Virus record (IMG/VR): IMGVR_UViG_3300025392_000148
Span: 1 to 28,821 of that record
Source of the DNA: a virus
Taxonomy: Duplodnaviria > Caudoviricetes
Reading direction: 5' to 3' (one strand)
Length of the DNA stretch: 28,821 nt
Below the pieces are notes generated by a model that was not told the origin of the DNA, ran no database searches, and saw nothing but the letters and a program-made list of their open reading frames with translations. Below, in pieces: positions 6,001 through 27,751 of this stretch (within the stretch, counting starts at the first letter, position 1; the number at the start of each line of letters is the position of its first letter). A program made the position numbers and the translations under genes.

Positions 6001-6575
6001 GCAACATCAAATGTGTATGTGCCACCGCGTGCCATAGTTATTTGTAAATTAGGGTGTACACCTAATCCGCTGAATACATATCCGCCAATATCGGTGTTGC
6101 GAGTAACTGTATATTCCGCTGAATACGGAACTTGATTTGAGTATACGTTAACTGGAGCAGGACCGCCTGGTAACCAGTGATAGTTATAGTAGTTTACAAA
6201 CTTGTCGTAGTCAAAGTGTCCGTCGTAGCTGTAACTAGTTGCAGAAAACAAACGCTGATGGTCATTGGTAAATCCATTGTATCGCTCAATGCTGTTTAAT
6301 AAATCGATGTATCCTGAATTAAATTCAATTTGACCATTGTTATTTTTTACAACCACACTTGATTCAAGTTGATAGTTACTTCTTTTTGCTGATGTCTCAG
6401 GAACATAGTTATCACTGAATTTAAATGTAGGAGCAACTGTACGACCAATGTAACCATTCAATGGCACATTGATTGGATCAGTTGCCAATTGATCTACTGT
6501 AGCACCAAGAAAGCGTTGATTAGTCGCTGTTTGGAATACTGGTGGTAAAAAATTGATTGTGCTAACTAAGCTCAT
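1..6575 (-). CDS. Very large virion structural protein (baseplate/tail-associated), >2190 aa, C-terminus runs off the window start
   Basis: ATG at 6575 overlaps the upstream TAA (TAATG). It begins MSLVSTINFLPPVFQTATNQRFLGATVDQL. The same frame reads sensibly at ~1330 (IPSWQVDTDYQLGDLVVYNGSYYTANQN) and at the window edge (KFGSSVRISSDDNYVFVGSPGSK, FG-GAP-like). Its absence from the ORF track fits having no stop in the window. It is the last gene of the baseplate operon. Confidence 0.85.
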   Translation of the reverse strand, partial: MSLVSTINFLPPVFQTATNQRFLGATVDQLATDPINVPLNGYIGRTVAPTFKFSDNYVPETSAKRSNYQLESSVVVKNNNGQIEFNSGYIDLLNSIERYNGFTNDHQRLFSATSYSYDGHFDYDKFVNYYNYHWLPGGPAPVNVYSNQVPYSAEYTVTRNTDIGGYVFSGLGVHPNLQITMARGGTYTFDVAQDSQFWIQSQPGVAGTDSNVTSLSTRQVFGVVNNGASNGKVTFKVPLKTAQDFYINMPIKASVDAATNLHYNQIQGQLLSDFLTAYPQGFDGVNNQLHNKTFVFVNNDIDDSFWTVGGTTIASPARTGIWKIVLVPTGNDYTISLLPTIVIAPQQKVFISSGKQYASSEFWLDNNYNYQTVPPITATKDYLYYQDSNNPDFFGIIKLVDNESTPINIVQDIIGAVGYTSPNGVKFTNGLKVQFDSTVVPSTYANNQYYVEGVGTAIALIPVSQMVVPESFSQLLPTSADYITISRASENLNPWTRSNYWFHTDVINATALYNNTDADYGPGIPGRRPIIEFEPNLRLMNYGLQAKTSVNYIVLTPSDAFNDIEGKITASIDGHILVNGDRIIFANDADTTILNEVWQVEIQRINNTDYITLIETTDDPVLANQNVLVTSGTHAGSTYSFDGTKWTLCQAKTGLNQAPLFDLVDANGFSFADTTVYPDSTFAGTKFFGYPSVTGTNDAILGFPLSYRNFNNIGDIVFANFYDSDTFTYTLNLKTVTVNCNSGYLSKSTGTTETARLNNWVVNKESTKQYQVFSKFFDGYVLEIDGVQKPFVQIDILPNSQADVPYTKVYLNNVLLTPATDYVITNYGVHNIVAFNTSVAVNDKIDIFIFSDAVSAMAYYEIPKNLDINPLNENFTTITLGQLRSHYNKLIENTSLSATGNIPVQDNYLKNHTGTVLQHSAPLIYAMTFLNDPLVNFIDGLTLARKEYSKFKNKFLNLCSTLSMLDYNNPATGVDIILQNINALKNSSFPWYYSDMVPQGSSYSTINYTVVNARQQQYEISSIFDNTQLSNRAIIVYVNGKQQVLGIDYTFSLNSPAVNFTKTFTVGDTITIRDYANTDGNYIPETPTKLGLYPKSVPEIYVDNTYQTPVTVIRGHDGSITPAFGDFRDDYLLELETRIYNNIKADYTRTQIDLAEVIPGRFKDTDYSLTEFNEIIGQNFLSWVGANNIDYSVNTGFDINNPWTWNYSNFQDIVDGSPLQGSWRAIYQYWFDTDTPNLTPWEMLGFSSKPSWWDTRYGLSPYTKSNDVLWQDLEAGYIWNNGSPYTDVRFARPGLSKFIPVDNSGNILSPTQIPLIKQYNTQLANAAFAVGQQGPAETAWRRSSDYPFAIQYAIALTKPAKYFSTKIDISKFYTNSQTGQFSEFNNQKLTPSLLQVNGDSSTGTIARTSGYINWIADNIKNLGIDPVTKMKEYFNNLSVQLNYKVGGFTDKTMLTVSAEQTSPGSTSGSVIIPDNNYSIYLSKSVPVSTVTYSAVIVTRTDSGYSISGYDNVNPFFTIIPSIANKNSQTIKVNELAVQIYQDSTNTIQVVPYGTEYATIQQVADFLISYERHLTSQGLLFSNFNTDLSEQQNWTLSVKELLTWGQQGWAAGNILLLNPTANDLILKTNGTVVDEINNLSNGNKLLNQDFLPIKSNNFTVLRLENIVNGNRFKISTLDGSIICFARLNLVQFEHVLVFDNVDDFGDIVYIPNQGTRQNRLKLSGSKTGAWTGALSAPGYIYSNPVIPSWQVDTDYQLGDLVVYNGSYYTANQNILASSDFSWTAWTPISASDIQTGLLPSFGSLASRFENIYDIDIPPTNEEVQMFSAGLIGFRQRQYLTDLGISIPTQTKFYQGFIKEKGSLNVINALTKGNFDNVTGNINIYEEWAFLGGQYGGVDSNTFREFVLDQSIFNTNPVAFSLTDNYNTSDIIANLTLANIYNASNISSTSTSIYSNRTTDVQSTDLPSVGYVNLDDVDYKIFNVSNFTDPITNMGAGNKVWIAKDNNNQWDVLRVNETKLNATLLTYVLDSYAQLEFDYAHNFVAGDFFVLKYFNPTFDGVYEVVSVAHPSVVTIKISNVQPSALEISPLQTLIRALSVSGSGTVYKLNSARVNTVTDLVALDPPLDGWIDNDHVWVNQESNTGWGVYTFNTPWTSNAVANVAHTITSNAKFGSSVRISSDDNYVFVGSPGSK

Positions 6576-9500
6576 TAAAATGTTCCTACTAGGTTATTGC
6601 CAAGATTTAATTGTGCAGCTGTTACTGCAGTTACAATATCAATGTCATTTACTGTTGCAGCACTGGTAATAATTTCCCAAGGTTCAGAGTTGATTTGGAA
6701 ATAGTTACCGAAGACCAAATCATTACTGGCTGGAACGATAAGAATACTACTGATGTTTGGTGCTAGTGTTGTATGCAAATATGCAGCCAATTCACTGAAG
6801 TAAAAGGAATCACCAAAGTCCCAATTACTTACATCAAAGTATTTGTTAATTGCAGCAATAACCTGCGTTTTAATTTCGTTATCAGTTACACCCACTGCTG
6901 GATTTTTAACAATTTGGAAACGTGCTCGTAAACTTGGATCGGCTTTAGCACCAAACAAAGGTTTAAAACGTGCAGGATTATAAACAATAGTATCACTCAT
7001 AGCCTTGAAGTTATCAAGTGTGCTGTACTCAATTTCTAAACTACTTGAAGTAGGTGGAGTAGGCTGAACTATTGTGCCAGTTAAATCACGAAGCCAATTG
7101 GTATAATCAACAGTATAAGCATTTGTTAAAATGTACAAGTCAATAATGTTAATTGGTGTTGGGTCAATGCGACTACGTGCTGGCGCATTATGTTTATATT
7201 GGAAATATAAATTGTTGCGACTTGATGAAGAGTTGTTGCCTGGTATTGGGCCAACAATGTCAGTAAACATAGTTGGGAAATCAGGAACACCTAACATTTG
7301 TGTTTCTGGACTCTTGACTAAAATAGTTGATGTATCAACATAACCGTCAGGTTGTGTTACGTTATTGTAAATTTGCCAAACTATATCTTGCCCAATTGGT
7401 GTATTGGTATTTGGTAAAGTGTTAATTTTTAAAATCTTAATAAGATCATTAACTGTTGTTCCAGTTGCAGAATTATACACACGCGATTGCGGATTAAAAT
7501 AGAATTTAGTTTCGGATGCACTGGTCAATGCATAGTTAATAACTCGATACTGTATAGTATACAATCCTTGATTGTAGGTAAATTTCAATACCCAATCAGT
7601 AGAAGGGTTATTAATATCTGCTGGCAGTACGTTTGCCCAAGTTTGATTAACTTGATCATAGACTAGACCAAAATTGGTTTTAGCCTGTATCTGACTTACC
7701 ACAGTAGAAATTAAACTGCTGCTTAAATTATTTTTGTATGGGGGAATAATGGCATTAGCACCCATTAAATTGCTGTCAGTTAAAACAGCACCAGTTGGTA
7801 CAACTGAAGCAAAAGTAATTAAGTTAGGAGTGTTTACATCATTGCCGTTGACTGTACTTTTTACTGTGGCAAATGTTGCTCGATTATTATTTACAAATTG
7901 TAAACTTGCACCAGTGGCAACGTATTGTAAATTAGTATTTGTTCCAGCACCAACTTGCTGTGTGTTACCGGCATATTTTAAATATCCACTGCTGGTTGAA
8001 GTACTACTTGCAGTTTGTACAAATGTCAAGTTGGCAAAAGGACTACTATAAGATGGGTATGTACCATAATAGTAGTTACGTACTTCTGTACTGTCAATGA
8101 TAGGAATTATTTGATTATAAATTGCCGAGTAAATGTCGTTGACAGTTAAGAAACTAAATGTAGTTGACGCTGCAGTATTGTTTGCACTTAATATTCCATC
8201 ATCAGAGAAAATATTAGTAGTGGAGAATGTACTAGTTGGATTGATTGCATCCAGATATAAACTTACGCCAGAACTTGTACGATTAACTGCTTTAATCTTT
8301 TGGATATTGGTAAATGATGTTTGAGGGAAGATATTATAATCTTCGCCGGTGATCATACGGTTTTGAGTATAGTACTGTTGCGGAGCACTTGATTTAATAC
8401 TTGATAAACTTGGTGCCGCATTAGCATTGGTTACTGTGTATTTTAAACTGGCAGTAACAGTTAGGGTTTCAATAGTATTCTTTTTGCTAATGTAACTAAA
8501 TGCAATAGTAACACTTGACATATCATCTGGACTGATAGTATAAGTTGTTCCGTTACTTGTACGATAGTAAAATTTAAATTTGCCTTGCGGAATATTACTA
8601 AAACTGCCATCGCCAAACACTAGGTTAACTTGGTCATTGACCAATGTATTAACTTGATATAGATTTTTCTCTGACATGTTGTTGAATACAACATTCACGC
8701 CAGGTAGTGAAGGAACTTGAGACCATTTAGTAGATGGGTTACCATTAACGTCTAATGCATATAACCATTGGTCGCCTGTGGTAATATTATTTGTAGCAAC
8801 CTGAACATAGTTGTTGGGAATTGCGTTGGTAATATTGAATGTAGTAGAATTCAAACTGCCTTGTTTAAAATAAACAAAGAATCCAGTGTTGTTACTACCA
8901 TTGCCATTATTGTCATTACGATAAAGAATATTGAATACACCGTTGTGTGTTGGGTCAGATTCGTAAATGTAACTTTTTCCAACACTGGTACCACTAACTG
9001 CTTCAAATCCCATAGCAGTTCCGTTAACGGTTACTGCAAAAGCAGCAACAGGTAAAGTGTTAGGGTTTAAATTAATACTGTATTCGTCAGTTTGAATACC
9101 GTTGATTGCCTGACTATTTCCAGGTTTACCAAAAGCTTCGCTGGAAATCATACTGGCATTAAGTATGGCAGTAAATTGTTCCATCCAATTGTCATTGGTT
9201 AAATCATTCCAGTGTACAGTTACATTGGATAAATTTAAACCGTTGCTGTCAGCAATGGCCTCTGTTGTTTTAACGCTGTCAAATTTTAGCAGTCCACTAG
9301 ATGCAGTTGTACGTTGTGGATTAAAGGCCAGCATACGAGCTAGTTTTAATATACTGTCACGACGCTGTGCTGTGTCAATAAAGTTTTCGCGGGCATTTAG
9401 GTCGGCACGGAAAGCCAAACTTTGACCTAAAAAAGCAACCATGTCAATTAATGCCAAATATTCACTAGATTCTAAGAAATCATTAAATGACTCTGGATAG

Positions 9501-15874: not shown

Positions 15875-16768
15875 ATGGCCCGCAATAATTATCTCAATAA
15901 TAAAGATATTCTCAAAGAAATTCATAAAAGTAAAAACAGCTATTGCTTCTACGAAACACCAGATGTAGCTGATTACGATATGATTGTCCCAGACGTAAAA
16001 AAGATCAACAAAAAGAATATCATGCAAGCACGTAAAGATCGCGCTGTTAGACTACAAAAACTAGCACACGAAGTTGCTACTGCTGATGGAACTAAAAGAA
16101 AATTAGACGAGTTTGAAATTAAACTCAAAGATGTCTTAGACACCGATGTTGTATTTCGTGTGATGACATGGGATCATATTCCAGTTGACGACGTTAAAAG
16201 CCGTAAGGCCGCTGTCAAGGCATTGGAATTAGAAGACGATGGTCCAGCACGTAGTGAATACGACGATGACGAACTAGACATTGCCGGCAATACCAAGTAC
16301 GTTAAAGTAAACTTTCCGCCATTTGAACACTACAAAGTCGACAAAGCTGGCGAACCTATATTGGTAGGACGTAGCCATTGGAAGGGCAATTTAAAGACCG
16401 GAACCTTTAGTAAGGATCACGGCAAGATGACTCCCAAGTTAGCTCACATGTTTATCAAACTGTGTGAACGTTATGCTACACGCTCTAACTGGCGTGGTTA
16501 TACATATAACGACGAAATGCGTAGTCAAGCATTGTTACAGTTAAGTCAAATTGGTCTACAGTTTGACGAATTTAAAAGTCAAAACCCTTTTGCGTATTAT
16601 ACGGCAGCAATTACCAATTCATTCACTCGAGTGTTAAATATAGAAAAGCGTAATCAAAATTTACGTGACGACATTCTTGAAATGAATAATTTAACCCCAA
16701 GTTACACACGTCAAGGTATGAAAATATCAGCAACTAGTGGTGGCAGCGACGGCGGTTATGATGACTAA
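15875..16768 (+). CDS. gp55: Late-transcription sigma factor, T4 gp55-like
   Basis: NYLNNKDILKEI at the N-terminus, and CERYATRSNWRGYTYNDEMRSQAL...FDEFKSQNPFAYYTAAITNSFTRVLNIEKRNQ matching the gp55 core. It lies upstream of gp47 and gp46 as in T4-like phages. Confidence 0.88.
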   Translation: MARNNYLNNKDILKEIHKSKNSYCFYETPDVADYDMIVPDVKKINKKNIMQARKDRAVRLQKLAHEVATADGTKRKLDEFEIKLKDVLDTDVVFRVMTWDHIPVDDVKSRKAAVKALELEDDGPARSEYDDDELDIAGNTKYVKVNFPPFEHYKVDKAGEPILVGRSHWKGNLKTGTFSKDHGKMTPKLAHMFIKLCERYATRSNWRGYTYNDEMRSQALLQLSQIGLQFDEFKSQNPFAYYTAAITNSFTRVLNIEKRNQNLRDDILEMNNLTPSYTRQGMKISATSGGSDGGYDD

Positions 16769-18291
16769 TGACCTTTAATCAAAAGATATTAATCTTAGGT
16801 AGTGAAACTCTACAAACAGACGAATTAACCGGTGCCTTGGCCAACAGCTCGGGCACAGTTAATTACGGGCTCGTTGAATCTGCAGAGTTTGTTCCTGTTA
16901 ACGTGGGCTACTATCATACGTCAACTGCTGATTTAAGTCCTGGCGACATTGTTTGCCTTTCTAAACATTTTGATCAAATTGAAATGCTAGATCAAGACAT
17001 CGAAGACTACCCGCATTTTAAAAGTCTAGTAACTACTTTACGACTAATGCAGGACTTAGAAGAGCTGGGAGTCAATACTGTATACAGAGATAACAAGTCA
17101 GCAAAAAGACTATTGCACTGGCGCAATTTCCTTAAAGAAAATAGAAGTTTTTGCATCTGGCCGTTTATTGGCGTAGTAAACGATTTTGGCATTACTACTG
17201 CCTGTAGTAAAAGTTACAAGCCGCTGACTCGATTAAACGAAATGACAGATTGGAAAAACGATCCAAACTATAACGAAGTAAGAAACAACATGATTGCCGG
17301 CACACTGATGCCAGACCGTTGCGGTGACTGTTATGCTAGAGAACAAAACGAAGGACTAACAGAAAGTGCTAGACAATTTGAAACACTTGAATGGCTACAG
17401 AGACTGTCTGTTGATTCTGTTGATGAATTAGAAAAAATAGAAAATCCACTGTTATATGAGTTCCGCCCAAGTAACAAGTGTAATATCATGTGTCGTATGT
17501 GCGACGATGCACACAGTCATTTAATTGAAAAAGAATGGAAAGCTGTAGGTATTCCATTGTTGCCAAGAAAATTTACCAGTACTCCAGATTTTGATAAAAT
17601 CAACTTTTCATCAGCACAGCGTATCTACTGGGGTGGTGGCGAACCTACAATAATGCCAGAGTTTTATAGTTTTCTAGAAAAATGCATTGCAACCGGTCAT
17701 ACTGATTTTGAATTAAACATTGGCACTAATGCTATGAAGTTTAGCGATAAATTAGTTAACCTATTAGATAGCTTTAGTAAAGTTACCTTATCTGTCAGTT
17801 ACGACGGGTACCAAAGGGTAAACGACTATGTACGCTGGTTGTCAGATTTTGACACTATGGTCGATAACTGTCGACGTTTACGAGATCGTGGACATATTAT
17901 ATCATTGCAAACGGTATTTTCAATGTGGAACGTAACTCGCATACATGAAATATTTGAATTTTATGATCGTGAATATCCAAACGCAGGTCTATTAGTACAA
18001 CCAGCCGAAGGACAAAACAGAATATTCTTACCATACAATCATCCAAGACCCGATTTGGTTGTAGAGTCAATGGAACGTTGCAAACAAACCAAAGTGTACT
18101 ATGCCAATGGCAGATCTATTAAGAGTCTAGTAGATCTTATACACAGCCACTATTCCAATCCTAATTATACTGTTGACAAAGAACTGCTAAGAGATTTTTA
18201 TGAGTTCAATGACATATTGGACAATGCTCGTGGTAGCCGATTAGAAGACTATATACCCGAACTAGCACACGCTCGTAGTATAATCGACTAA
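16768..18291 (+). CDS. Radical SAM protein with N-terminal unknown domain and N-terminal SPASM/twitch-like Cys cluster
   Basis: CNIMCRMC (CxxxCxxC), GGGEP, TNA and VSYDG...NDYVR motifs. Upstream Cys cluster FCIWPF..ACS..CGDCY. Confidence 0.88.
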   Translation: MTFNQKILILGSETLQTDELTGALANSSGTVNYGLVESAEFVPVNVGYYHTSTADLSPGDIVCLSKHFDQIEMLDQDIEDYPHFKSLVTTLRLMQDLEELGVNTVYRDNKSAKRLLHWRNFLKENRSFCIWPFIGVVNDFGITTACSKSYKPLTRLNEMTDWKNDPNYNEVRNNMIAGTLMPDRCGDCYAREQNEGLTESARQFETLEWLQRLSVDSVDELEKIENPLLYEFRPSNKCNIMCRMCDDAHSHLIEKEWKAVGIPLLPRKFTSTPDFDKINFSSAQRIYWGGGEPTIMPEFYSFLEKCIATGHTDFELNIGTNAMKFSDKLVNLLDSFSKVTLSVSYDGYQRVNDYVRWLSDFDTMVDNCRRLRDRGHIISLQTVFSMWNVTRIHEIFEFYDREYPNAGLLVQPAEGQNRIFLPYNHPRPDLVVESMERCKQTKVYYANGRSIKSLVDLIHSHYSNPNYTVDKELLRDFYEFNDILDNARGSRLEDYIPELAHARSIID

Positions 18292-18299
18292 ACTTGTTG

Positions 18300-18328
18300 T
18301 TGCAATTACCAAAATAATCGTGTATAGT
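18300..18328 (+). promoter_or_regulatory. Sigma70-like promoter, predicted leaderless gp47 mRNA
   Basis: TTGCAA-N17-TATAGT, then 7 nt to the ATG at 18336, with no SD. Confidence 0.7.
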
Positions 18329-18335
18329 AGCAGTT

Positions 18336-19352
18336 ATGACTAATCTATTTAAAAAAGCCGCTGTCTTTACTGATATCCACTTTGGATTAAAATCTAATAG
18401 CACGATCCATAACGAAGATTGTCTTAACTTTGTTAAATGGGCAACTGCTAAAGCCCGAGAGGAAGGGTGCGACACCGCACTCTTTCTTGGTGACTGGCAT
18501 AATAATCGTGCGTCAATTAATATTGTAACACTACAATACAGCCTAAGGGCGCTGGAGCATTTAAATGAAAACTTTAGTCAAACATACTTTATTCCGGGCA
18601 ACCATGATTTGTATTATCGTGATAAACGTGATGTACAATCTGTGGAGTGGGCCAAACATCTCAGTAACATTCACATTTGTAACGATTGGACTACTGTGGG
18701 TGATGTTACTATTGCTCCTTGGCTCGTTGGTGATGACTATAAGCGAGTCCCGAAACTAAAAGGCAAGTACATGTTTGGGCACTTCGAGTTGCCACACTTC
18801 TTTATGAATGCCATGGTACAGATGCCGGATCATGGAGAAATCAAAGCCGACGCATTTAAAAACTTTGAAACTGTATTCTCCGGCCATTTCCATAAACGCC
18901 AGAACAGCAAAAACATCTGGTATATTGGCAACTGCTTTCCACATAACTATGCTGACGCTGCCGATGATGCACGTGGTATGATGATCTTAGAGTGGGGTAA
19001 AGAGCCTGAATTTCATGCCTGGCCCGATCAGCCACGTTATCGTGTGTATAGACTAAGTGATACACTAAAGCGTCCAGAAGAACTATTAATGCCAGGTATG
19101 CATGTACGTGTTAATTTGGACATTGATATCAGTTACGAAGAAGCTACGTTTATCAAAGAAACATTTGCTGACACTTATAAACTGCGTGAAATTACACTTA
19201 TTCCACAGAAGTCCACTGACATTACCGAATACGAAATACAAGGCAACGTAAACTTTGAAAGCGTAGATCAAATTGTAACCAATCAATTGACCAGTATTGC
19301 CAGCGAACACTATGATCCAAATTTATTGCTGGACATCTATAGAAATTTATAA
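18336..19352 (+). CDS. gp47: Recombination endonuclease subunit, gp47/SbcD/Mre11-like metallophosphoesterase
   Basis: Phosphoesterase motifs FTDIHFG, FLGDWH, PGNHD, GHFE and SGHFHKR, plus synteny with gp46. Confidence 0.93.
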   Translation: MTNLFKKAAVFTDIHFGLKSNSTIHNEDCLNFVKWATAKAREEGCDTALFLGDWHNNRASINIVTLQYSLRALEHLNENFSQTYFIPGNHDLYYRDKRDVQSVEWAKHLSNIHICNDWTTVGDVTIAPWLVGDDYKRVPKLKGKYMFGHFELPHFFMNAMVQMPDHGEIKADAFKNFETVFSGHFHKRQNSKNIWYIGNCFPHNYADAADDARGMMILEWGKEPEFHAWPDQPRYRVYRLSDTLKRPEELLMPGMHVRVNLDIDISYEEATFIKETFADTYKLREITLIPQKSTDITEYEIQGNVNFESVDQIVTNQLTSIASEHYDPNLLLDIYRNL

Positions 19353-20791
19353 TGTTAATCACCAGGGCTTGCATTAATCCTAACATTGTATTGCACCGCA
19401 CTGACAACTTTGATATTGTTCAGTCTATCAATTATGAAGAATTTTGCGGGATGATCAATTTTTGGAAAATGTTTTTTGTAGAACAGTACAATGTAAAAGC
19501 TGGAGAACGTGCATTTATTGTTGGTAGCCCTGGATATAATTATTACGGTGCTATATTTGCTGCCATGGAACTGGGCCTAGTATTAATACTTGATTGGCCT
19601 CACTGCTATAACGAATCTGATTTGTCTAACTATAAAGTAACAATGTTTGGCAAAATTAACTACATTGTATATCTTGATTCAGCAGATCCTACAGAAAATA
19701 CACACTGGGATCAAGAAAGAAATCGTCGTTTTAGTCGTAATGTCATTACACTCAATGATTTTCAAAACTACAGTATAAAAGATGGCACCAGATATAAAGA
19801 AATAAGCGAACGTATCGACTGCGGTCCCGACGATATAGTTGTAGAATATCCCAGTAGTGGCACTACAGGCAAACCCAAACGTATCACCAATACGCATAAA
19901 AAGATTTACTTAATGGGTCAACGCATTGGTCGTATGTTTAAATTTGCGCCAGAAGATAATATTCTACATTTAACCAATTTGAATCACGGACACGGTTTAT
20001 GTTTACATTTTCTTCCAGGATTTATGATGTCCAATGTACACTATTCTGCTAATCCAAACGATCTAGCAGGTGTAACTAAATTTATCAGCGATAAAAAAAT
20101 TAATCGTGCATTACTTTATACATCAAAATTACTATTAGATTTTTTAAAACAAACTGTTAGATTAGATCACCCGTTAAAAATATTAACATTGTATCAAATT
20201 ACTCCCGAAGTTATACGATTAATGCGTGATAAAAATATTGCCGAAGTTAAAAGTACATTTGGTGATACTGCAATTGGCGCAGGATTCTTATTAAAAACAG
20301 AAACTCCCGATACAGACTTGACTGATTATAGTACAAGTAACTATGGTCCCAAAGTTGATGACTTTTGGCAATTTGAAATACGCAACGGTGTTCTATGGGT
20401 CAAGTCCGACGTGTTAGAACAAGACTGGATGACTAGCAATGATCAATTTGACATCGTCAACGGCAACTACTATTTTAAAGGTCGTGCCGATGCATATAAA
20501 ATACAAGACGAGTGGGTTGGGCTTGACGAAATAGAGCAGGCTGTACGTACAGCATTTTATTCTAAAGCTACTATTGCAGTTGATTTAGAAATGCAAAAAA
20601 TTTATCTTGCTATATGGGAAGAAGATCCTGTTGCAGAACAAATGGTCAACGACTATTTTAAACAAAAATATAAAAATGTACGTATCAGTTACGTTATTAG
20701 AAATCAAAAATATGAAGAATTTTTTAACAGTAGAAAAATAGACAACAGTAAGATTAGAGATTACTGTAGAACTCAATTAGGATTAAAATGA
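19352..20791 (+). CDS. Adenylate-forming (AMP-binding, ANL superfamily) enzyme, divergent
   Basis: P-loop-like YPSSGTTGKPKRI, plus LNHGHG, FGDT, YFKGRAD, DEIE and C-terminal RKID motifs. Confidence 0.78.
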   Translation: MLITRACINPNIVLHRTDNFDIVQSINYEEFCGMINFWKMFFVEQYNVKAGERAFIVGSPGYNYYGAIFAAMELGLVLILDWPHCYNESDLSNYKVTMFGKINYIVYLDSADPTENTHWDQERNRRFSRNVITLNDFQNYSIKDGTRYKEISERIDCGPDDIVVEYPSSGTTGKPKRITNTHKKIYLMGQRIGRMFKFAPEDNILHLTNLNHGHGLCLHFLPGFMMSNVHYSANPNDLAGVTKFISDKKINRALLYTSKLLLDFLKQTVRLDHPLKILTLYQITPEVIRLMRDKNIAEVKSTFGDTAIGAGFLLKTETPDTDLTDYSTSNYGPKVDDFWQFEIRNGVLWVKSDVLEQDWMTSNDQFDIVNGNYYFKGRADAYKIQDEWVGLDEIEQAVRTAFYSKATIAVDLEMQKIYLAIWEEDPVAEQMVNDYFKQKYKNVRISYVIRNQKYEEFFNSRKIDNSKIRDYCRTQLGLK

Positions 20792-21723
20792 AATACTTAT
20801 TAGCCGTATTACTCTGCATCAACACAGCATTTGCCGCTACATTCCCCAATGGGCCTGTTACTATTATTGTACCGTTGCCAGCTGGTTCAGGTCCCGATGT
20901 TATGGCTAGACACTTGGCAGAACAACTGACTGCTCGATGGAATCAACCAGTCGTCATCGAGAATCGTCCCGGTGCCAATGGTCTTATTGCTATGGATGCT
21001 TTTGTAAACGAAGTAAACAATCCTGGCTTAACCCTATATCTTGCTACATCAGAAAATATAGTTTCTTTTCCAATACTCTACCAGGAAACTCCATTTCATA
21101 ATATTACCATGCCTGTAGCGCCATTCTTTAAGAATGACTTAATGCTGTTTACTAGTTCAGCAACTGCTAACTATAAAGATTTGCAAGAACAGATTGTTCG
21201 TCGACCTATATTTGGTACACAGGCTTTAGGTTCCAGTAGCCACTTGGCCGGACTAGAGCTTGCTCAACACATTACAAAAACTCCAGGTACAGCAATTCCT
21301 TATAAAGAATATAATCAATGGTTTGTTGAAGTTGCTAATCAAACTATTACCTACGGATTTGGCACAGTGGCTAGCACTCGTGGATTAGAAGAAAAAGGTC
21401 GATTGCGATATATTGCAACTACTGGTAAGCAGAGAAATCCAGACTACCCTAAGGTACCAACTATTAAAGAATTGGCGGGCATTGACGTAACTAATGTGGG
21501 CTGGCTAGCCTTTTATGCCAGCAGAAATTTAAGTGCTGGCAATCAAACTCAGCTAATACAAGACTTAAATGATGTTATACACAGTACAGCTATGACCAAT
21601 GCAATTACCAATGTTAGCTATCAACCATATACTGGTTCATTGTCAGATTTCAATAATCAGACTAAGTTGGATATTCAACGATTTCAAATTTTGATTAAAA
21701 AATACGATATAAAACTCAATTGA
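20788..21723 (+). CDS. Bug/TctC-family (tripartite tricarboxylate transporter) periplasmic substrate-binding protein
   Basis: Signal peptide MKYLLAVLLCINTAFA, then FPNGPVTIIVPLPAGSGPDVMAR...QPVVIENRPGANG, GSSSHLA, IPYK and PKVPTIKE, the hallmark Bug motifs. Confidence 0.9.
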   Translation: MKYLLAVLLCINTAFAATFPNGPVTIIVPLPAGSGPDVMARHLAEQLTARWNQPVVIENRPGANGLIAMDAFVNEVNNPGLTLYLATSENIVSFPILYQETPFHNITMPVAPFFKNDLMLFTSSATANYKDLQEQIVRRPIFGTQALGSSSHLAGLELAQHITKTPGTAIPYKEYNQWFVEVANQTITYGFGTVASTRGLEEKGRLRYIATTGKQRNPDYPKVPTIKELAGIDVTNVGWLAFYASRNLSAGNQTQLIQDLNDVIHSTAMTNAITNVSYQPYTGSLSDFNNQTKLDIQRFQILIKKYDIKLN

Positions 21724-21748
21724 CCTTACAACAACTTTCATCTATACT
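21720..21748 (+). promoter_or_regulatory. Sigma70-like promoter, predicted leaderless gp46 mRNA
   Basis: TTGACC-N17-TATACT, then 7 nt to the ATG at 21756. The -35 overlaps the Bug stop codon, and there is no SD. Confidence 0.72.
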
Positions 21749-21755
21749 TGACTAA

Positions 21756-23525
21756 ATGTTCAAACTTAAAAATCTAACGGTAAAAAACTTTATGAGTGTG
21801 GGTAATGCCACACAGGCCATCGATTTCGATCGCAAGGACTTGACACTGGTCTTAGGCGAGAATTTGGATTTAGGTGGCGACGATACCGGTGCTAGAAATG
21901 GTACAGGTAAAACCACTATCATTAATGCATTAAGTTATAGTTTGTTTGGCAATGCGCTGACAAACATTAAGAAAGATAACTTAATTAACAAAACCAACGG
22001 TAAAAATATGTTAGTCACTGTTGAGTTTGAATGCGATGGTACTAGTTATAAAATTGAACGTGGTCGCAAACCAAATACCATGGCATTTTATATTGGTGAT
22101 CAAGAACAAGACATTACTGATGAAAGTCAAGGCGATAGCAGAGAAACACAGGCTGAAATTGAACGCTTGTTAAATATGAGTCACGATATGTTCAAGCATA
22201 TTGTTGCTCTTAATACATACACTGAACCATTTTTAGCACTTAAAGCCAATGATCAACGTACTATAATTGAGCAGTTACTTGGTATTACATTGTTAAGTGA
22301 AAAGGCTGATCGATTAAAAGAACAAAATAAAGCTACTAAAGATGCTATTACTCAAGAAGAGTTTCGCATCAAAGCAGTCAGCGATGCTAACAGGCGTATT
22401 GAAGAACAAATTGAAAGTCTGAAGCGCCGGCAGGGACTATGGATATCTAAACATGAAGAAGAGACGCAAAAGTTACAGGTCGGAATTGAGGAGTTACAGA
22501 AAATTGACATCCAGGCCGAGATTCAGGCACACCAAGCGTTCAAGACGTGGGATCAAACTCGCAAGGATATCAATGAACTATCGTCGGCGATTAGTCGGAC
22601 AAAGCTGGACCTTGGTAGGGAAGAAAAAACTATTAGCAAGATATCAGCAGAACTTGTTTCGCTGGAGAATCATACGTGCCATACCTGCGGTCAAGAGTTC
22701 TATGACGAGAAGCACCAACAAGTTCTGGGACAGAAGCAGAGAGATTTGGCAGGAGCAACAGAGTCGGCGCAAACACTTACTGCCACATTGGCTGAACTAC
22801 AGTCTGCTCACAATGGGTTGGGCAAGTTAGGTCCACGTCCTGAAACGTTTTATGATCGAGAGTCGGATGCTATTCATCATCAAGCTACAGTTGACAGTTT
22901 GATCAAACAACTAGAAACTAAACTAGCTGAAATTGATCCCTACACTGATCAAATTGCTGAAATGCAAACAACTGCGGTAGAAGAAATCGACTACGGTGTT
23001 ATGAATGAGCTCAATCGTGTTAAAGAACATCAAGAGTTTTTACTTAAACTGCTTACTAATAAAGATTCATTTATACGTAAACGTATTATTGATCAAAATT
23101 TAAGTTATCTAAATGCTCGTTTAGGACAGTATCTAGATCGCATTGGTTTACCGCATACAGTCAAGTTTAATAACGACCTAAGCGTAAGCATTGAAGAACT
23201 AGGTCGTGAACTGGACTTTGATAATTTAAGTCGCGGAGAACGCAATCGTTTGATACTTTCATTATCGTGGGCTTTCCGTGATGTATGGGAAAACTTATAT
23301 AATAAGATTAATTTATTATTCATCGACGAAGTTATTGATACAGGTATGGATAGCTCGGGTGTTGAAAATAGTCTAGCAATCTTAAAGAAAATGGCACGTG
23401 AAGGTGATCGTAGTGTATGGTTAGTATCACACAAAGACGAATTAGCCGGACGTGTTAATAACATTCTAACAGTAGTTAAGGAAAATGGATTTACAACCTA
23501 CAACACCGACGTCGATATTACTTAA
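21756..23525 (+). CDS. gp46: Recombination ATPase subunit, gp46/SbcC/Rad50-like
   Basis: KNFMSVG, Walker A NGTGKTT, coiled coils with the zinc hook CHTCGQ, signature LSRGE, Walker B LLFIDEVIDTGMD and H-loop VSHK. Confidence 0.95.
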   Translation: MFKLKNLTVKNFMSVGNATQAIDFDRKDLTLVLGENLDLGGDDTGARNGTGKTTIINALSYSLFGNALTNIKKDNLINKTNGKNMLVTVEFECDGTSYKIERGRKPNTMAFYIGDQEQDITDESQGDSRETQAEIERLLNMSHDMFKHIVALNTYTEPFLALKANDQRTIIEQLLGITLLSEKADRLKEQNKATKDAITQEEFRIKAVSDANRRIEEQIESLKRRQGLWISKHEEETQKLQVGIEELQKIDIQAEIQAHQAFKTWDQTRKDINELSSAISRTKLDLGREEKTISKISAELVSLENHTCHTCGQEFYDEKHQQVLGQKQRDLAGATESAQTLTATLAELQSAHNGLGKLGPRPETFYDRESDAIHHQATVDSLIKQLETKLAEIDPYTDQIAEMQTTAVEEIDYGVMNELNRVKEHQEFLLKLLTNKDSFIRKRIIDQNLSYLNARLGQYLDRIGLPHTVKFNNDLSVSIEELGRELDFDNLSRGERNRLILSLSWAFRDVWENLYNKINLLFIDEVIDTGMDSSGVENSLAILKKMAREGDRSVWLVSHKDELAGRVNNILTVVKENGFTTYNTDVDIT

Positions 23526-24486
23526 TTACCGACGTATACACATTGAAATAAGCAGTAAGTGTACTCTTAAATGTCCACGGTGTCCTCGCACAGAATTAAA
23601 ACCTGAAGCGTTGAATCGAGAAATCAGCTTATTAGAGTTTCAACGTGCATTTACCGCAGACTTATTAAGTGAGATAGACGAAATAACATTCTGTGGCGAT
23701 ATAGGTGATCCTATATATGCCCGAGACTTTCTGCCTATTGTGGAATACATTAAACAGAGTAGATTTGATACTCGTTTAGTTATTGTTACTAACGGTAGTT
23801 ACAAAGATGCTGCGTGGTGGACCAAACTAGGCGAGTTATTAAACAACCACGATACTGTGACTTTTAGCGTAGACGGCTGGGATCAAGCATCAAATGAACA
23901 GTATAGAGTTAATAGCGACTTTGCGAGTATCATTGCAGGTGCTAAAACCTTACGTGCTAATAGTAATTGTATAATGAATTGGTCAGCTATCTATTTTAGT
24001 TTTAACGAACTTGAAATGCAACACATACAAGATCTAGCCGCAGAGTTGGGTTTTGATACATTCCATCGTGTACACAGTACCAAATTTGATGGTGCCTATT
24101 TATTAGACGGAACCGATCCACTTAAGCCCAGCGCACAGTATGTACAACACGCTGGTAAGTATGTAGTCGATCGACATAGCCTAGGCACTAGAGGAGTCTC
24201 GTTACCGTTGCATCGATGGGACCGTAGAGAACGGCATCCCTGGGCACGTTGTATAAACGGTGACAAAGAAATGTTTATCAATGTAGACGGATTAGTATTT
24301 CCTTGTCCTTGGTTTAACTCGGGCTATCTGTATAACGACTTTGTAGACAAGTATCGAGATCAAATTAATATTAAAACACGAACACTAAAAGAAATACTAG
24401 CAGATCCACTATGGGAAGAACTATATACACGTTTTGAAATAGCGCCACTAGATATTTGCCAACTGAAATGTAAAAATGCTCAATAA
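23485..24486 (+). CDS. Radical SAM protein with C-terminal SPASM/twitch domain (start codon uncertain)
   Basis: CTLKCPRC, FCGDIGDP, TNGS and FSVDG motifs. C-terminal ARC...INVDGLVFPCPW...ICQLKC. It overlaps the end of gp46 by 41 nt. Confidence 0.88.
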   Translation: MDLQPTTPTSILLNYRRIHIEISSKCTLKCPRCPRTELKPEALNREISLLEFQRAFTADLLSEIDEITFCGDIGDPIYARDFLPIVEYIKQSRFDTRLVIVTNGSYKDAAWWTKLGELLNNHDTVTFSVDGWDQASNEQYRVNSDFASIIAGAKTLRANSNCIMNWSAIYFSFNELEMQHIQDLAAELGFDTFHRVHSTKFDGAYLLDGTDPLKPSAQYVQHAGKYVVDRHSLGTRGVSLPLHRWDRRERHPWARCINGDKEMFINVDGLVFPCPWFNSGYLYNDFVDKYRDQINIKTRTLKEILADPLWEELYTRFEIAPLDICQLKCKNAQ

Positions 24487-25732
24487 AGATATATTCTGTA
24501 ACATACCCTGGGTAGAAGTTCACATCAATGCCGATGGAACTTATCACTCTTGTGGCGCACAACCTAATACTATAAGTAATACGCCAGCAGGTATAACCAA
24601 TAATGTGCATCAGATGACTATCCCGGAATGGATCAATAGTGAACATCAGCGTCGTGCTAGAAAAAATAAGTTAGAGGGTGTAGAAGAACCACTATGTGGC
24701 ATGTGCTATGCCGAGGATGCTAGCGGATCAAGTAGCAAACGTGTTAAAGAAAATTTAAAAAGCAGTATCAGTGACTTAACATTTTACAAAGATTATCCGA
24801 CTAGCCCAGACTTTAATATGTTTGAGTTTAGTCGGGCCGATGGTAGCACTGATAATTTACGCCCTTACAGTTATCATATCAGTTTAGGAAATGAATGTAA
24901 TCTTGCTTGCAAGATGTGTGGGCCAACTGCTAGCAGTCGATTAGCGGTACAAATGATTCAAGATGGGTCATACACAGGCCCGGCTCGTATGAACTGGACT
25001 ACTAACGAATCTTCGTGGAATCATGTAGTGGATTATATTTGTTCAACAGATAATCTACGTTTTGTACATATTATTGGTGGCGAGCCGCTAATGAATCCTA
25101 AATTTGAAGATTTAATTGATAGATTAATTTCTGCAGGTAAAACAGATATCTATTTAGGGTTTACTACAAACGGCACTATGGTTAATATACCGTTGATTAA
25201 AAAGTTAAATGTATTTAGGCATGTGGACATTGGCATTAGCATAGAGGCTGCCGGTGCGTTGAACAATGCTATCCGTGATGGTTCTACTACAGAAACAGTA
25301 CTAGATAACATAGATATCTACTTAAAATACCGCCGCGAGGCACATGTTTATGTTACGTTAAGGGCTGTACCTAGTGCATTGAGTGTACACACGCTTGATG
25401 AACTATATCATTGGTGCATCAGTCGCCGATTAGATGTTGTAACTAATATGCTTACCTTTCCAGAATATCAGCAAATACGCAACTTGCCGGACTTGGTTAA
25501 ACAGCGATTGTTAGATCAATACGGTCAGTGGGAATACAGTGAGCCTTTACCGGGTACAAGTGATCCTAGAGATCCAAATAGATTTAGAGAACACATTGAT
25601 AGCGAAATACGTGCTATTATAAATTGCTTACAGCAACCAGCTGATCCTGTGTTAACAGCAGAGCTATACCGCAAATTAACGGCTTGGGGATGGTTAGATG
25701 ATCCAAATCTCAAGAAATATTTTGAAATTTAA
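24476..25732 (+). CDS. Radical SAM protein with N-terminal SPASM/twitch-like Cys cluster
   Basis: FCNIPW..INADGTYHSCG..CGMCY, then CNLACKMC, IIGGEP, TTNGT and ISIE. Confidence 0.88.
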   Translation: MLNKDIFCNIPWVEVHINADGTYHSCGAQPNTISNTPAGITNNVHQMTIPEWINSEHQRRARKNKLEGVEEPLCGMCYAEDASGSSSKRVKENLKSSISDLTFYKDYPTSPDFNMFEFSRADGSTDNLRPYSYHISLGNECNLACKMCGPTASSRLAVQMIQDGSYTGPARMNWTTNESSWNHVVDYICSTDNLRFVHIIGGEPLMNPKFEDLIDRLISAGKTDIYLGFTTNGTMVNIPLIKKLNVFRHVDIGISIEAAGALNNAIRDGSTTETVLDNIDIYLKYRREAHVYVTLRAVPSALSVHTLDELYHWCISRRLDVVTNMLTFPEYQQIRNLPDLVKQRLLDQYGQWEYSEPLPGTSDPRDPNRFREHIDSEIRAIINCLQQPADPVLTAELYRKLTAWGWLDDPNLKKYFEI

Positions 25733-25740
25733 GGTAGAGT

Positions 25741-25749
25741 GATAACTAC
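25741..25749 (+). promoter_or_regulatory. Possible late-promoter variant (GATAACTAC) before the GIY-YIG gene
   Basis: One mismatch to GATAAATAC, 5 nt upstream of the ATG at 25755. The geometry resembles the gp25 promoter. Confidence 0.4.
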
Positions 25750-25754
25750 TATGC

Positions 25755-26183
25755 ATGTCATGGCTTTTCGAAAACACTCAAGTAGAAGTTCTACCCGAAG
25801 ATTGTGTTGGTTTTGTTTATTTGATAACAAATAACTTAACCGGCAGGAAATATATTGGCAAAAAATTAGCAAAGTTTAAAAAAACCACTTATCGTATGGT
25901 TAAACTCAAAAACGGTAAGAAGAAACGTAAGAAGATACGAGGTACAATCGATAGTGATTGGCAAACCTATTATGGGTCTAGTCCAGAACTATCCAAGGAT
26001 GTGGCAGAATTAGGCGTTGACAATTTCAGTAGAGAAATACTATACTACTGCAAAAGTAAAGCAGAATGCAGTTACATTGAGGCGAGAGAACAATTTGCTC
26101 GCCGGGTACTAGAAACAACAGATTATTATAACGGACACATACAAGTCCGTGTACATGGCTCACATATTATCAACAAGATTTAG
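25755..26183 (+). CDS. Small stand-alone GIY-YIG nuclease-family protein (142 aa)
   Basis: GFVYLITNNLTGRKYIGKK (GIY-YIG), YYGSS, FSREIL, conserved Glu helix (SYIEAREQF) and YYN. It has a Lys/Arg-rich insertion and no C-terminal DNA-binding domain. Confidence 0.82.
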   Translation: MSWLFENTQVEVLPEDCVGFVYLITNNLTGRKYIGKKLAKFKKTTYRMVKLKNGKKKRKKIRGTIDSDWQTYYGSSPELSKDVAELGVDNFSREILYYCKSKAECSYIEAREQFARRVLETTDYYNGHIQVRVHGSHIINKI

Positions 26184-26230
26184 TTCTTCAGACAAAAAGT
26201 CTAACTGCTTTAAAACCCATTAACAGTAAC

Positions 26231-26590
26231 AGGCTCGCACAGGCCAAACACGTGTGCCTATGACAACTCGATAATAAGAGGGACGGAAATCTTGCCGCTG
26301 TAGCAAGTGCTCAATCACTATCCTTAACAGGACGAAGATCGCTAATCGCCGCGGTTTGATTGTTTGAAGAACTAGATAAGGCTAAAAAGACGTGCTAGTG
26401 ATAGCACACGGTTAATATGTATGTTAGCGTATATGTATTAATCCGCCGTTGTAAAAAGACGCAACTCGAGGTACCGGACAACCGCCTCTGTAATTTGTTG
26501 TAACGCTAAGTGACTGTGCTACTCGGATAATGCTACAGATCTTAACTTTGCCCTGTGCGGGCAAAGTGTGACCAATTAATCTGGATAATA
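26231..26590 (+). ncRNA. Putative large structured non-coding RNA of unrecognised family (boundaries approximate)
   Basis: The 495-nt gap has no listed ORF in an otherwise gap-free genome. At least 7 stems were found by eye, including a three-way junction (26312-26362), a GUGA GNRA-loop hairpin (26392-26407), a G-U-rich ~14-bp stem (26410-26443) and a perfect 9-bp stem (26545-26567). Confidence 0.6.
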
Positions 26591-26624
26591 CTTAAAAACA
26601 GCAATAGTTCTTATATAGTGTTTA

Positions 26625-26679
26625 AAAGAAAAAAACATTAACGAGCAAAGCGAAGTTAATAGATCTGCGAAGTAGATCT
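26625..26679 (-). terminator. Tandem hairpins plus T-tract right after the minus-strand stop; possible intrinsic terminator
   Basis: Minus strand: AGATCT-acttcgc-AGATCT, ATTAAC-N12-GTTAAT, then GTTTTTTTCTTTT. The stems are AT-rich, so it would be weak. Confidence 0.35.
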
Positions 26680-26897
26680 TAAAAGAATGGCAATCCTGAT
26701 TCTTTAGTAGTATCTAAATTAGATTCAATAATTGCACTAATTAATTTTCTATCTTCATAACTAAGCATCATGGCGTCATCGTAAGAGATACTACCACGCA
26801 TGAACCAACATGCTGTTAGGAGGTCTTTCTTCGTGGCTTTTGCATCCTTGTCGAGACTTTCTAGTAGTTCGACAATTTCCTCATTTGGTAATGTCAA
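26679..26897 (-). CDS. gp51-like hub assembly / tail chaperone C-terminal segment, probably expressed by -1 frameshift from the upstream gene
   Basis: CWFMRGSISYDDAMMLSYEDRKLI resembles the gp51/tail-chaperone-T motif. It has only a TTG start, and its frame is open back through the slippery site. Confidence 0.7.
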   Translation of the reverse strand: MTLPNEEIVELLESLDKDAKATKKDLLTACWFMRGSISYDDAMMLSYEDRKLISAIIESNLDTTKESGLPFF

Positions 26898-26902
26898 AAG
26901 CC

Positions 26903-27751
26903 TTATGCGAAAAAAGTTGATTGCTCAAATATAAACGGTGTAACAAACTCTTTATTACATTCGGTATTTTCGCAAGCTAGTGTTAATTCTGTGTATTTGT
27001 TATTAGTTGATTGAATAGCTTCTAATTGATCTTTGATTGCTGTCCAAACTGACTTATCGCAGTTGTCTAAGAATTCACGGATAAATGTTTGATCTTCGAC
27101 CACTTGCCCATCTTCTGTCTTAATGCCTGCAATACTTTTACCAACTTGGTTAATACCTGTTTCAATTAGTCGTTGAAATAATATATCAAATTCTTTTGTC
27201 TTTTGTTCATCAGTAAGTTCTTGATTCTGAACTAACTGTATAATACGTTGCTCTTCAAAGTTCATCAAATTATTTTTATTAAAATCTTCGTAGCTTTGAG
27301 GCTTTAACAAAATTTCTAAATTATTAACTTTTACAGTAGTAGACCAATCGGCTAGTGTAATTTTGTCTAGTAGCACAGATAAATCTAATGCTTTTTCATT
27401 TTTACTGCCACAATGTGGGCATGCCGCAGTAAATTCCATTTCTTTACCGTATGTGGCTAAACGAATAGCAATTAGTACTGGATCTAAGTCAACTGTTGGC
27501 ATCTTCCACGCATCTTTAATAGCAGGACAGCAACTTTCAATGACATGCACAGTACTTGAGCCATTCATTAATGCATCTGGTGTTTTCATAGTTATTTCGT
27601 CTCTAGCAGTCATAGCATAGATAGGAACTTCACCTGTAACAGGTATATTAACTGCACCTTCAGCGTACCAACGTCCGTTACTAGGTAACTTTAAATATAA
27701 AACTGGTTGTCTAAAGTGTTTAGCTAAGGGGTTATTGGATAAATTGCCCAT
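26903..27751 (-). CDS. gp26: Baseplate hub assembly chaperone, T4 gp26-like
   Basis: YLKLPSNG...VPIYAMTARDEITMK...VDLDPVLIAIRLATYG...CPHCG and a C-terminal C..C follow the gp26-type pattern. It has a GGAG SD and lies next to the tape measure gene. Confidence 0.8.
   Translation of the reverse strand: MGNLSNNPLAKHFRQPVLYLKLPSNGRWYAEGAVNIPVTGEVPIYAMTARDEITMKTPDALMNGSSTVHVIESCCPAIKDAWKMPTVDLDPVLIAIRLATYGKEMEFTAACPHCGSKNEKALDLSVLLDKITLADWSTTVKVNNLEILLKPQSYEDFNKNNLMNFEEQRIIQLVQNQELTDEQKTKEFDILFQRLIETGINQVGKSIAGIKTEDGQVVEDQTFIREFLDNCDKSVWTAIKDQLEAIQSTNNKYTELTLACENTECNKEFVTPFIFEQSTFFA
26909..26915 (-). other. Putative programmed -1 ribosomal frameshift site T-TTT-TTC
   Basis: ACT TTT TTC GCA TAA is an in-phase X XXY YYZ heptamer just before the stop. 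The -1 frame reads CGC ATA AGG CTT TTG ACA TTA CCA, continuous with ORF 26679-26897. Confidence 0.7.

Follow-up and report, generated by a model that had tools for sequence, protein, structure and literature searches.

A conserved RNA-like element with a concerted direct repeat at a core locus of T4-like jumbo phages, and its possible role as a transcript-primed DNA site

A structured, RNA-like element is present at positions 26232-26679 of the window, a term used here for the whole 28.8-kb virus record, and belongs to the conserved, single-copy part of the core genome of T4-like jumbo phages of roughly 350 kb, where it is kept whichever nuclease gene precedes it. Its sequence is conserved, its paired bases covary, its 5' domains are exchanged between relatives, it is independent of the adjacent nuclease, and the two copies of a short direct repeat within it have changed in concert. 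The reading we favor, at a probability of about 40%, is that the element acts in cis as a transcript-primed DNA priming site, by analogy with the R-loops of ColE1 and T4. The initial annotation had described a GIY-YIG nuclease gene followed by a structured RNA of ~360-400 nt; the element is indeed structured and conserved, but that size was too small, and it reaches 26679.

Gene context

The window is DNA of a T4-like myophage, and its gene order runs from baseplate genes to homologs of gp55 (15875-16768), gp47 (18336-19352) and gp46 (SbcC/Rad50-like, identified by family match; 21756..23525, + strand), which anchor the locus upstream and are accompanied by radical-SAM and other inserts. These are followed by a 142-aa ORF (25755-26183), a gap of 495 nt, and a convergent pair of tail-hub genes (26679..27751, - strand), of which the gp26-like gene has a family match and the gp51-like gene is labeled from its position, without such a match. 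The ORF and the gap lie as first annotated, and the other gaps are short, as had been noted: the remaining 17 among the 19 main ORFs are all 126 nt or less. Several other features of the window were recorded. The interval 16768-25732 carries three radical-SAM genes, an AMP-binding enzyme and a TctC-like solute receptor among gp55, gp47 and gp46, and is a hypervariable insertion region; positions 1-6600 (- strand) hold an open frame of at least 2197 codons that runs off the window start and probably encodes a large tail or baseplate protein; and a run of six T plus C (26909-26915, - strand) ends the gp26-like gene, adjoining a 72-aa ORF with a TTG start.

Among 68 loci with nuclease homologs, gp46 is found within 3 kb upstream in 65. 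A late-promoter-like motif of the T4 gp55 type, with a presumed promoter function, precedes the nuclease gene in the window (25741..25748, + strand), and the same motif stands ahead of 44 of 57 distinct nuclease-homolog starts. When slightly widened, it precedes 63 of 378 ORFs in genome G002 and 53 of 378 in genome G001, compared to 1 and 3, respectively, in coding controls. The element itself has no late-type motif of its own within 150 nt of the RNA start (0/42).

The genomes of the largest relatives are 344-347 kb long, and two relative genomes carry 28 and 32 tRNA or tmRNA genes, including a permuted tmRNA. The permuted, two-piece tmRNA genes lie within tRNA clusters (contig L280, 10821-11310, of G002; contig L303, 3303-3716, of G001), that of G002 encodes an unusually long tag peptide, and a sequence at 8959-9033 of contig L302 was called as a tRNA with a CUA anticodon. 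A tmRNA or tRNA-like RNA was rejected as an identity for the element, since ARAGORN found no tRNA-like domain in the window and the tmRNA of G001 and G002 lies elsewhere. A retron or diversity-generating retroelement was likewise rejected, as the reverse transcriptase family PF00078 was detected in none of five genomes (three near-complete; search controls positive).

Extent and fold of the element

Folding of the single sequence is modestly better than that of shuffled sequences (z -2.21 for the + strand, -1.02 for the - strand), and the comparison of homologs supports the fold strongly. When a 98-pair structure was checked on 40 class-A sequences that had not been fitted to any structure, 72 pairs had changed on both sides and 94.9% of cells were paired; none of 500 shuffles reached this value and slid controls paired at 33-41%, although these controls lean in favor of the structure, which had been derived by mutual information from sequences that include the 40 tested. 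Sequence conservation extends to about 26680. Across the helices within 26232-26567 of 77 sequences, G-U pairs outnumber A-C combinations by 364 to 79, which fixes the + strand up to 26567 and bears out the proposal that the RNA is co-oriented with the nuclease gene.

All of the stems listed in the initial annotation were found where it had placed them; its inner CGG-acaa-CCG hairpin is unsupported, and 26478-26482 pairs with 26448-26452 as a pseudoknot (40/40 paired). Four pseudoknots, the co-varying direct repeat and two 3' hairpins extending to 26679 had been missed.

The 5' domain of class A (26232..26365, + strand) is the Polynucleobacter-1 motif, Rfam family RF01718, the whole model of which is matched, over positions 1-141, at 94.1 bits against a gathering score of 37, and covariation supports the same domain. 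The Rfam check suggested in the initial annotation thus identified the 5' third as already described and left the rest without a match, with no other Rfam family found on the element at E<=1. This domain opens with an H-type pseudoknot (26232-35 with 26242-45; 26237-41 with 26253-57) and contains a three-way junction. Beyond the Rfam model, an extension supported by covariation (26348..26509, + strand) adds three further pseudoknots (26348-50 with 26380-82, 26424-30 with 26503-09, and that of 26448-52 with 26478-82), a GNRA hairpin (26392-26407), a long G-U-rich stem (26410-26443) and a conserved core (26468-26488). Two other observations concern the alignment. Positions 26321 and 26333 co-vary as U-C or C-U (53 and 24 of 77 sequences), likely as a non-canonical pair, and some class-A elements (L002, L014, L027, L084 and L085) carry an A+T-rich insertion of ~10-nt periodic repeats after the conserved core, at class-A alignment columns 330-380, which is iteron-like or hairpin-forming.

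A direct repeat that changes in concert

Downstream of the extension are two copies of a direct repeat on the + strand, copy 1 at 26510..26533 (core 26525-26531) and copy 2 at 26568..26591 (core 26583-26589), with identical cores. Between them is a GC-rich hairpin (26545..26567, + strand) with 95.6% of cells paired, and the other classes have a hairpin of different sequence in this slot. Repeats were located in 125 of 134 elements, and 123 remained after two mislocated rows were dropped. The 7-nt cores of the two copies are identical in 119 of these 123, in 12 different states; shuffling gave means of 21.6 and 26.4, and the copy of the nearest relative matches in 71 of 123. Several states recur in both classes A and B, marine loci add more, and many combinations are seen at three variable repeat positions. 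Ahead of the core lies an invariant 3-nt mismatch (26522-24 versus 26580-82), and position -1 is identical between the copies in 119 of 120 cases. The repeat pair was found once in each of G001 and G002.

Concerted, identical change requires that one copy be recognized by the other, be it by pairing across strands, by like-with-like pairing or through a protein that evolves together with the two. When the copies of a direct repeat change identically, this is an unusual comparative indication of cross-strand contact. A complementary partner of the repeat was sought, and none was found covarying inside the element or recurring at one place in the flanks. Where the copies differ (positions +3 to +11), the differences would leave copy-1 RNA forming a wobble pair on the complement of copy 2 in 110 cases, versus 3 in the reverse direction; since a single, nearly fixed position supplies 88 of these 110 and one class-B subgroup many of the others, this directional test is weak. 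The search for a variable, guide-like segment, also suggested in the initial annotation, did yield a variable 7-mer within a fixed scaffold, but its only consistent match is to the second copy; the three genomes examined neither avoid their own 7-mer nor contain a conserved inverted target. Readings of the repeat as a ribosome-hopping or box C/D-like signal were rejected by eye, given the stop codon after both copies and the reversed order of the boxes.

Linker and terminal hairpins

The second repeat copy is followed by a variable, A+T-rich linker (26592..26636, strand not assigned), evident from sequence and alignment, which in many relatives contains a minus-strand minihairpin. Two terminal hairpins with tandem G-A and GNA or GNNA loops complete the element (26637..26679, + strand) and are supported by covarying stems and loop tallies. 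Most of the loops are cGNAg or GNNA, the latter including non-GNRA forms, TTTA and GNYA are also seen, and the hairpin pair occurs once per genome in G001 and G002. They have no G-U bias (G-U 16 versus A-C 29), so that the chemistry differs along the element, the 5' part having its strong G-U excess and GNRA loops. From their loop types, the terminal hairpins are predicted to fold as single-stranded DNA minihairpins. GNA minihairpins are reported to be very stable in DNA and related RNA hairpins less so, and such minihairpins are found at the priming sites of G4 and RSF1010 and at N4 promoters (PMC13037366). The terminal hairpins lie on the strand that an R-loop would displace. Their DNA folding energy is unremarkable (z -1.6 and -1.4), in a model that is not expected to score minihairpin stability.

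Classes and distribution

Eighty close nuclease-homolog loci were collected, and all 66 with at least 500 nt of downstream sequence carry an element (36 of class A, 25 of class B and 5 of class C). In 55 of the 66 it starts within 200 nt of the nuclease stop codon, and in most of the remainder, about one locus in six, a gene for a protein of 280-350 aa is inserted between the two. Inserted genes of this kind, coding for 275-356 aa (L010, 3306-4319; L015, 536-1603; L043, 3428-4252), have no Pfam or PHROG match. In place of the class-A 5' domain, classes B, C and others carry dissimilar ones; those of B and C have their own covarying pairs and no Rfam match, and marine nuclease homologs (50-59% identity, with gp46 upstream) reveal further classes. 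What the classes share is the 3' end, with its succession of repeat, hairpin, repeat, A+T-rich linker and terminal hairpins.

There is one copy of the element per genome, nearly always at the syntenic locus. A class-B-like element near position 2000 (- strand) of contig L089 lies among small genes, with neither the nuclease nor gp46 within 2 kb, indicating that the element can move. Among 50,697 records of cultured phages, no match to the element was found. Cellular genomes gave 70 motif matches, with ~69 estimated by chance; four of the 70 are full elements on contigs of bacterial metagenome-assembled genomes (MAGs; L234, L242, L223 and L257) and are probably misbinned phage. Two of these four are on 148- and 183-kb contigs of one MAG, and all four are weak host leads only. 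In two sequencing runs, the element and gene are covered by contigs of relatives (0.05 of query words each), and these contigs show neither expression nor ends.

Two further observations concern related positions in other phages. Downstream of the resolvase gene in L574, L578-L580 and L582 is a non-coding stretch outside the known classes but with similar terminal hairpins, perhaps another class. In Pseudomonas phage MIJ3 (L607, 1981-3494) and in PA5oct (75671-77170), 1.5 kb without a long ORF separates a resolvase-like gene from the gp26 region, and inspection by eye shows a hairpin between the copies of a short, imperfect direct repeat, with a late-type motif pointing into the stretch. This gap has no match to the element HMM at E<=1 and no Rfam match above a gathering score, and is absent from the four PA5oct ncRNAs; it is possibly an analogue in a tractable phage.

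The adjacent nuclease and its replacement

The gene preceding the element (25755..26183, + strand) codes for a stand-alone, Seg-type GIY-YIG nuclease of 142 aa, as judged by family match (PF19835, E 7e-33; phrog_447, for which the name NAD synthetase is a misannotation) and a structure model. Residues Y22, Y33, G35, E109 and N126 are invariant in 48 sequences, and the predicted structure (pLDDT 91) comprises a single GIY-YIG domain and a long basic beta-hairpin. The closest fold is the catalytic domain of I-TevI (Z 8.6, rmsd 2.7, 82 aligned), ahead of HIGLE (Z 3.9) and Slx1 (Z 3.1); PDB sequence searches gave no meaningful match and the Atlas returned PF19835 only. A C-terminal DNA-binding module is absent, as first described, the protein having a single domain. 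The basic insertion, which had been singled out as a special trait, is in fact a hairpin found family-wide: it is present, ~6 residues shorter, in the cultured-phage homologs Melnitz, phiM12, S-SSM7 and ACP17, in which the next gene begins 148, 28, -8 and 0 nt after the stop codon and leaves no room for the RNA. In the cultured-phage collection the family is represented by 496 records and is often labeled NAD synthetase. The nuclease gene is single-copy per genome, and G005 and G009 also hold longer, weaker matches to PF19835.

Among loci found by searching with the element and having at least 1.8 kb of flank, 60 of 65 in one search and 66 of 69 in another have the nuclease gene upstream. In three loci without it, the slot is filled by a PD-(D/E)XK protein (PF24608/phrog_244) annotated as a resolvase. 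Among 78 phrog_244 loci, gp46 is in the flank of 72 and a GIY-YIG gene is within 3 kb in none. With at least 700 nt available downstream in 77 of them, 68 of 77 retain an element, 52 of classes A-C and 16 of other classes; these counts include identical contigs, and classes A-C account for 37 of 54 distinct proteins. Over 269 nt, the element of the window shares 81% identity with one that follows a resolvase gene, and resolvase-borne elements are up to 85% identical to GIY-borne copies. Co-occurrence, the subject of another suggested check, therefore holds in one direction, all 66 close homolog loci carrying an element, but the element is also kept where there is no GIY-YIG gene. The phrog_244 gene was found in none of four near-complete GIY-YIG genomes (in a search without a positive control) and PF19835 in none of three near-complete resolvase genomes (the same search being positive in other genomes).

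Exchange of the two genes has been frequent. A tree built from 134 gp46 C-termini requires at least 12 changes of nuclease type, compared to a mean of 38 after shuffling, and different nucleases are found in phages that share 96-98% identity in this region of gp46. The RNA class changes 10 times on the nuclease protein tree (shuffled mean 29), proteins 98.6% identical adjoin RNAs of class A and class B, and by mutual information the nuclease residues track RNA class or repeat state no better than those of a tail-gene control.

Repeated exchange with a resolvase-like gene beside gp46 suggests that both proteins do the same job, cutting branched DNA, and gives the nuclease a testable role in junction cutting. 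The GIY-YIG protein is probably a junction or branch nuclease, and likely the Holliday-junction nuclease of the phage. Counting against this role are the presence of endonuclease VII in one of four near-complete GIY-YIG genomes and the absence of a special Slx1 signal in the fold search. With respect to the element, the protein is likely to be a neighbor, at most a processor of branched DNA, and not the partner of the RNA.

Possible functions of the element

If the element is a transcript-primed site, it might operate as follows. Transcription from the late-type promoter would make it the 3' trailer of the nuclease mRNA, and the 5' part of the element would fold into a multi-pseudoknot RNA that presents repeat copy 1. 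The RNA of copy 1 could then hybridize to the template strand of copy 2, which lies 58 nt further downstream, and this hybrid would hold a bubble open as an R-loop over the A+T-rich linker. The displaced + strand may fold into DNA minihairpins that load primase or the phage helicase, with an RNA end or a cut strand priming synthesis. Cross-strand pairing predicts identical repeat cores, as observed in 119 of 123 elements, and the RNA-type 5' part, the DNA-type loops of the 3' hairpins and the single copy per genome also support such a site. A DnaB-like helicase is encoded in four of five genomes. None of five genomes has an RNase HI gene, so a host or other enzyme would be needed, and a search for gp59 gave no match in any genome, without a positive control. 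ColE1 and T4 are reported to use transcript R-loops as origins (PMC5043065, PMC12599619, PMC3016281), and several T4 origins are near transcription-strand switches, the T4 origins having no common local motif (PMC3016281). The promoter motif ahead of the nuclease gene is late-type, which counts against priming, as transcription at T4 oriF and oriG starts from middle promoters and UvsW closes these origins down at late times (PMC3016281). Also counting against it, genes converge on the site and the invariant 3-nt mismatch would interrupt the proposed hybrid. No origin-type skew switch is seen here in G001 or G002, where GC and GC3 skew follow the coding strand. A wider and more speculative proposal, which we regard as rather improbable in this full form, is that interchangeable, multi-pseudoknot RNAs of 350-450 nt in one major clade of aquatic jumbo phages recognize their own template via a short variable repeat, as a guide in cis, and open, nick or prime one site per genome, making it an RNA-defined, possibly catalytic, origin or packaging start.

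A doubtful but serious alternative to priming is a large structured ncRNA that stands by itself, released by processing of the late transcript to work in trans. Its repeat copies would touch (for example, by parallel like-with-like pairs) or bind one dimeric protein, and its 3' hairpins would be terminators or stabilizers. An RNA of ~360 nt with four pseudoknots exceeds what an R-loop needs, and the several dissimilar 5' folds on a common 3' end would suit an ncRNA, as would the invariant pyrimidine mismatch and the identity of position -1 (119/120), which fit continuous contact between the copies. However, no genome has been seen to carry a second copy of the element, which is almost always found at the one locus, its 3' hairpins lack a G-U bias and have DNA-type loops, and the many combinations of the three variable repeat positions would be hard for one protein specificity to follow. 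The secondary suggestion of the initial annotation, an independent or replication-priming RNA, is covered by this reading and the priming reading together, and we count it as supported.

It is unlikely that the site starts late packaging or recombination, with RNA-DNA or slipped-strand pairing making branched DNA that the adjacent junction nuclease, of either fold, would cut, and with the cut ends serving headful packaging or recombination-dependent replication. The late-type promoter motif would agree with this, as would the position of the element after a resolvase-like gene in 68 of 77 loci and after a GIY-YIG gene in 66 of 66, and T4 endonuclease VII is reported to resolve branches during packaging (PMC3016281). 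Yet gp46 is also syntenic (65/68), so nuclease adjacency needs no function; roughly one locus in six has a gene of ~280-350 aa lying between the nuclease gene and the element, just 10 of 48 resolvase genes have the promoter motif ahead of them, and the element of L089 is in another neighborhood.

Quite improbable is a 3' regulatory trailer of the recombination operon, affecting mRNA stability, termination against the convergent tail operon or feedback on the upstream gene. In many loci elements do begin only a few bases from the stop codon of the gene before them, they lack a late-type motif of their own (0/42) at a site where transcripts converge, and the motif was scored as possibly cis-regulatory in Weinberg et al. 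2010 (PMC2864571). The upstream gene, however, can be any of several unrelated genes, and the concerted repeat and DNA-type hairpins would go unexplained.

Least probable by far is the main idea of the initial annotation, a GIY-YIG ribonucleoprotein whose RNA would guide the nuclease or regulate it: for all its constant proximity (66/66 close homolog loci, 55 of them within 200 nt, and 60/65 and 66/69 element-first loci), the predicted long basic hairpin of the protein and a repeat core that varies within a fixed scaffold, it fails because an element kept beside either nuclease, with up to 85% identity between the two settings, is unlikely to be a guide for one of them, and because near-identical proteins adjoin RNAs of different class, protein and RNA share no more information than the tail-gene control, cultured homologs have the hairpin without the RNA, and the single-copy element comes with no avoidance of its own 7-mer in three genomes. 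This lead should be dropped.

Comparison with known systems

In ColE1, an upstream stretch of RNA pairs with the template near the origin. The element differs from ColE1 RNA II in its phage core locus, late-type promoter, multi-pseudoknot folds and concerted 7-nt repeat, and its function is proposed by analogy. TIGR-Tas systems consist of a repeat array and a Nop-domain protein; here there are two repeat copies and no array. OMEGA/HEARO systems are RNA-guided and place a compact nuclease beside a large structured RNA, an arrangement seen here as well, but the nuclease has a GIY-YIG fold, is not mobile and is present in one copy, without protein-RNA co-variation, and the RNA is kept without the protein. 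GOLLD and ROOL are large, ornate RNAs of phages and prophages, with several hundred bases and many pseudoknots. The element is of comparable size and also has many pseudoknots, but it has no Rfam match to either, occupies a fixed core locus, and ends in a repeat and DNA-type hairpins.

The GIY-YIG nuclease has the fold and family (PF19835) of the Seg/I-TevI enzymes, without their C-terminal binding module, and is single-copy. A role like that of Holliday-junction resolvases has been conjectured for conserved Uri-domain proteins and REase-fold proteins of jumbo phages (Iyer et al. 2021, PMC7824862); our likening of the nuclease to the Uri-domain proteins is by fold and suggested role, and the locus-level exchange with phrog_244 comes from the present analysis.

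Only the 5' third of the element is already catalogued. Positions 26232-26365 fit the whole Polynucleobacter-1 model (RF01718; Weinberg et al. 2010, PMC2864571), but the model covers ~134 of ~450 conserved bases, is without the pseudoknots and repeat, and misses classes B, C and others. Our literature search found no paper on the full element, its exchangeable domains, the concerted repeat or the nuclease exchange, and for the motif only Weinberg et al. 2010; the supplements of that study and of Fremin 2023 may bear on it, and the latter (PMC10690425) describes models of up to 151 nt, and pieces of the element may be in its supplementary files. An orphan Rfam motif turns out to be one part of a far larger core element, carried by jumbo phages that are abundant and uncultured.

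Compared to T4 oriF and oriG, the element differs in its ornate, conserved RNA, no equivalent of which is described for T4 in the part of PMC3016281 available to us, and in its late-type promoter motif, the T4 promoters being middle-mode. It shares with them a T4-like phage, a position near a strand switch and, if the priming reading is true, a transcript-formed R-loop, in which case these phages would start DNA synthesis or packaging with an ornate RNA.
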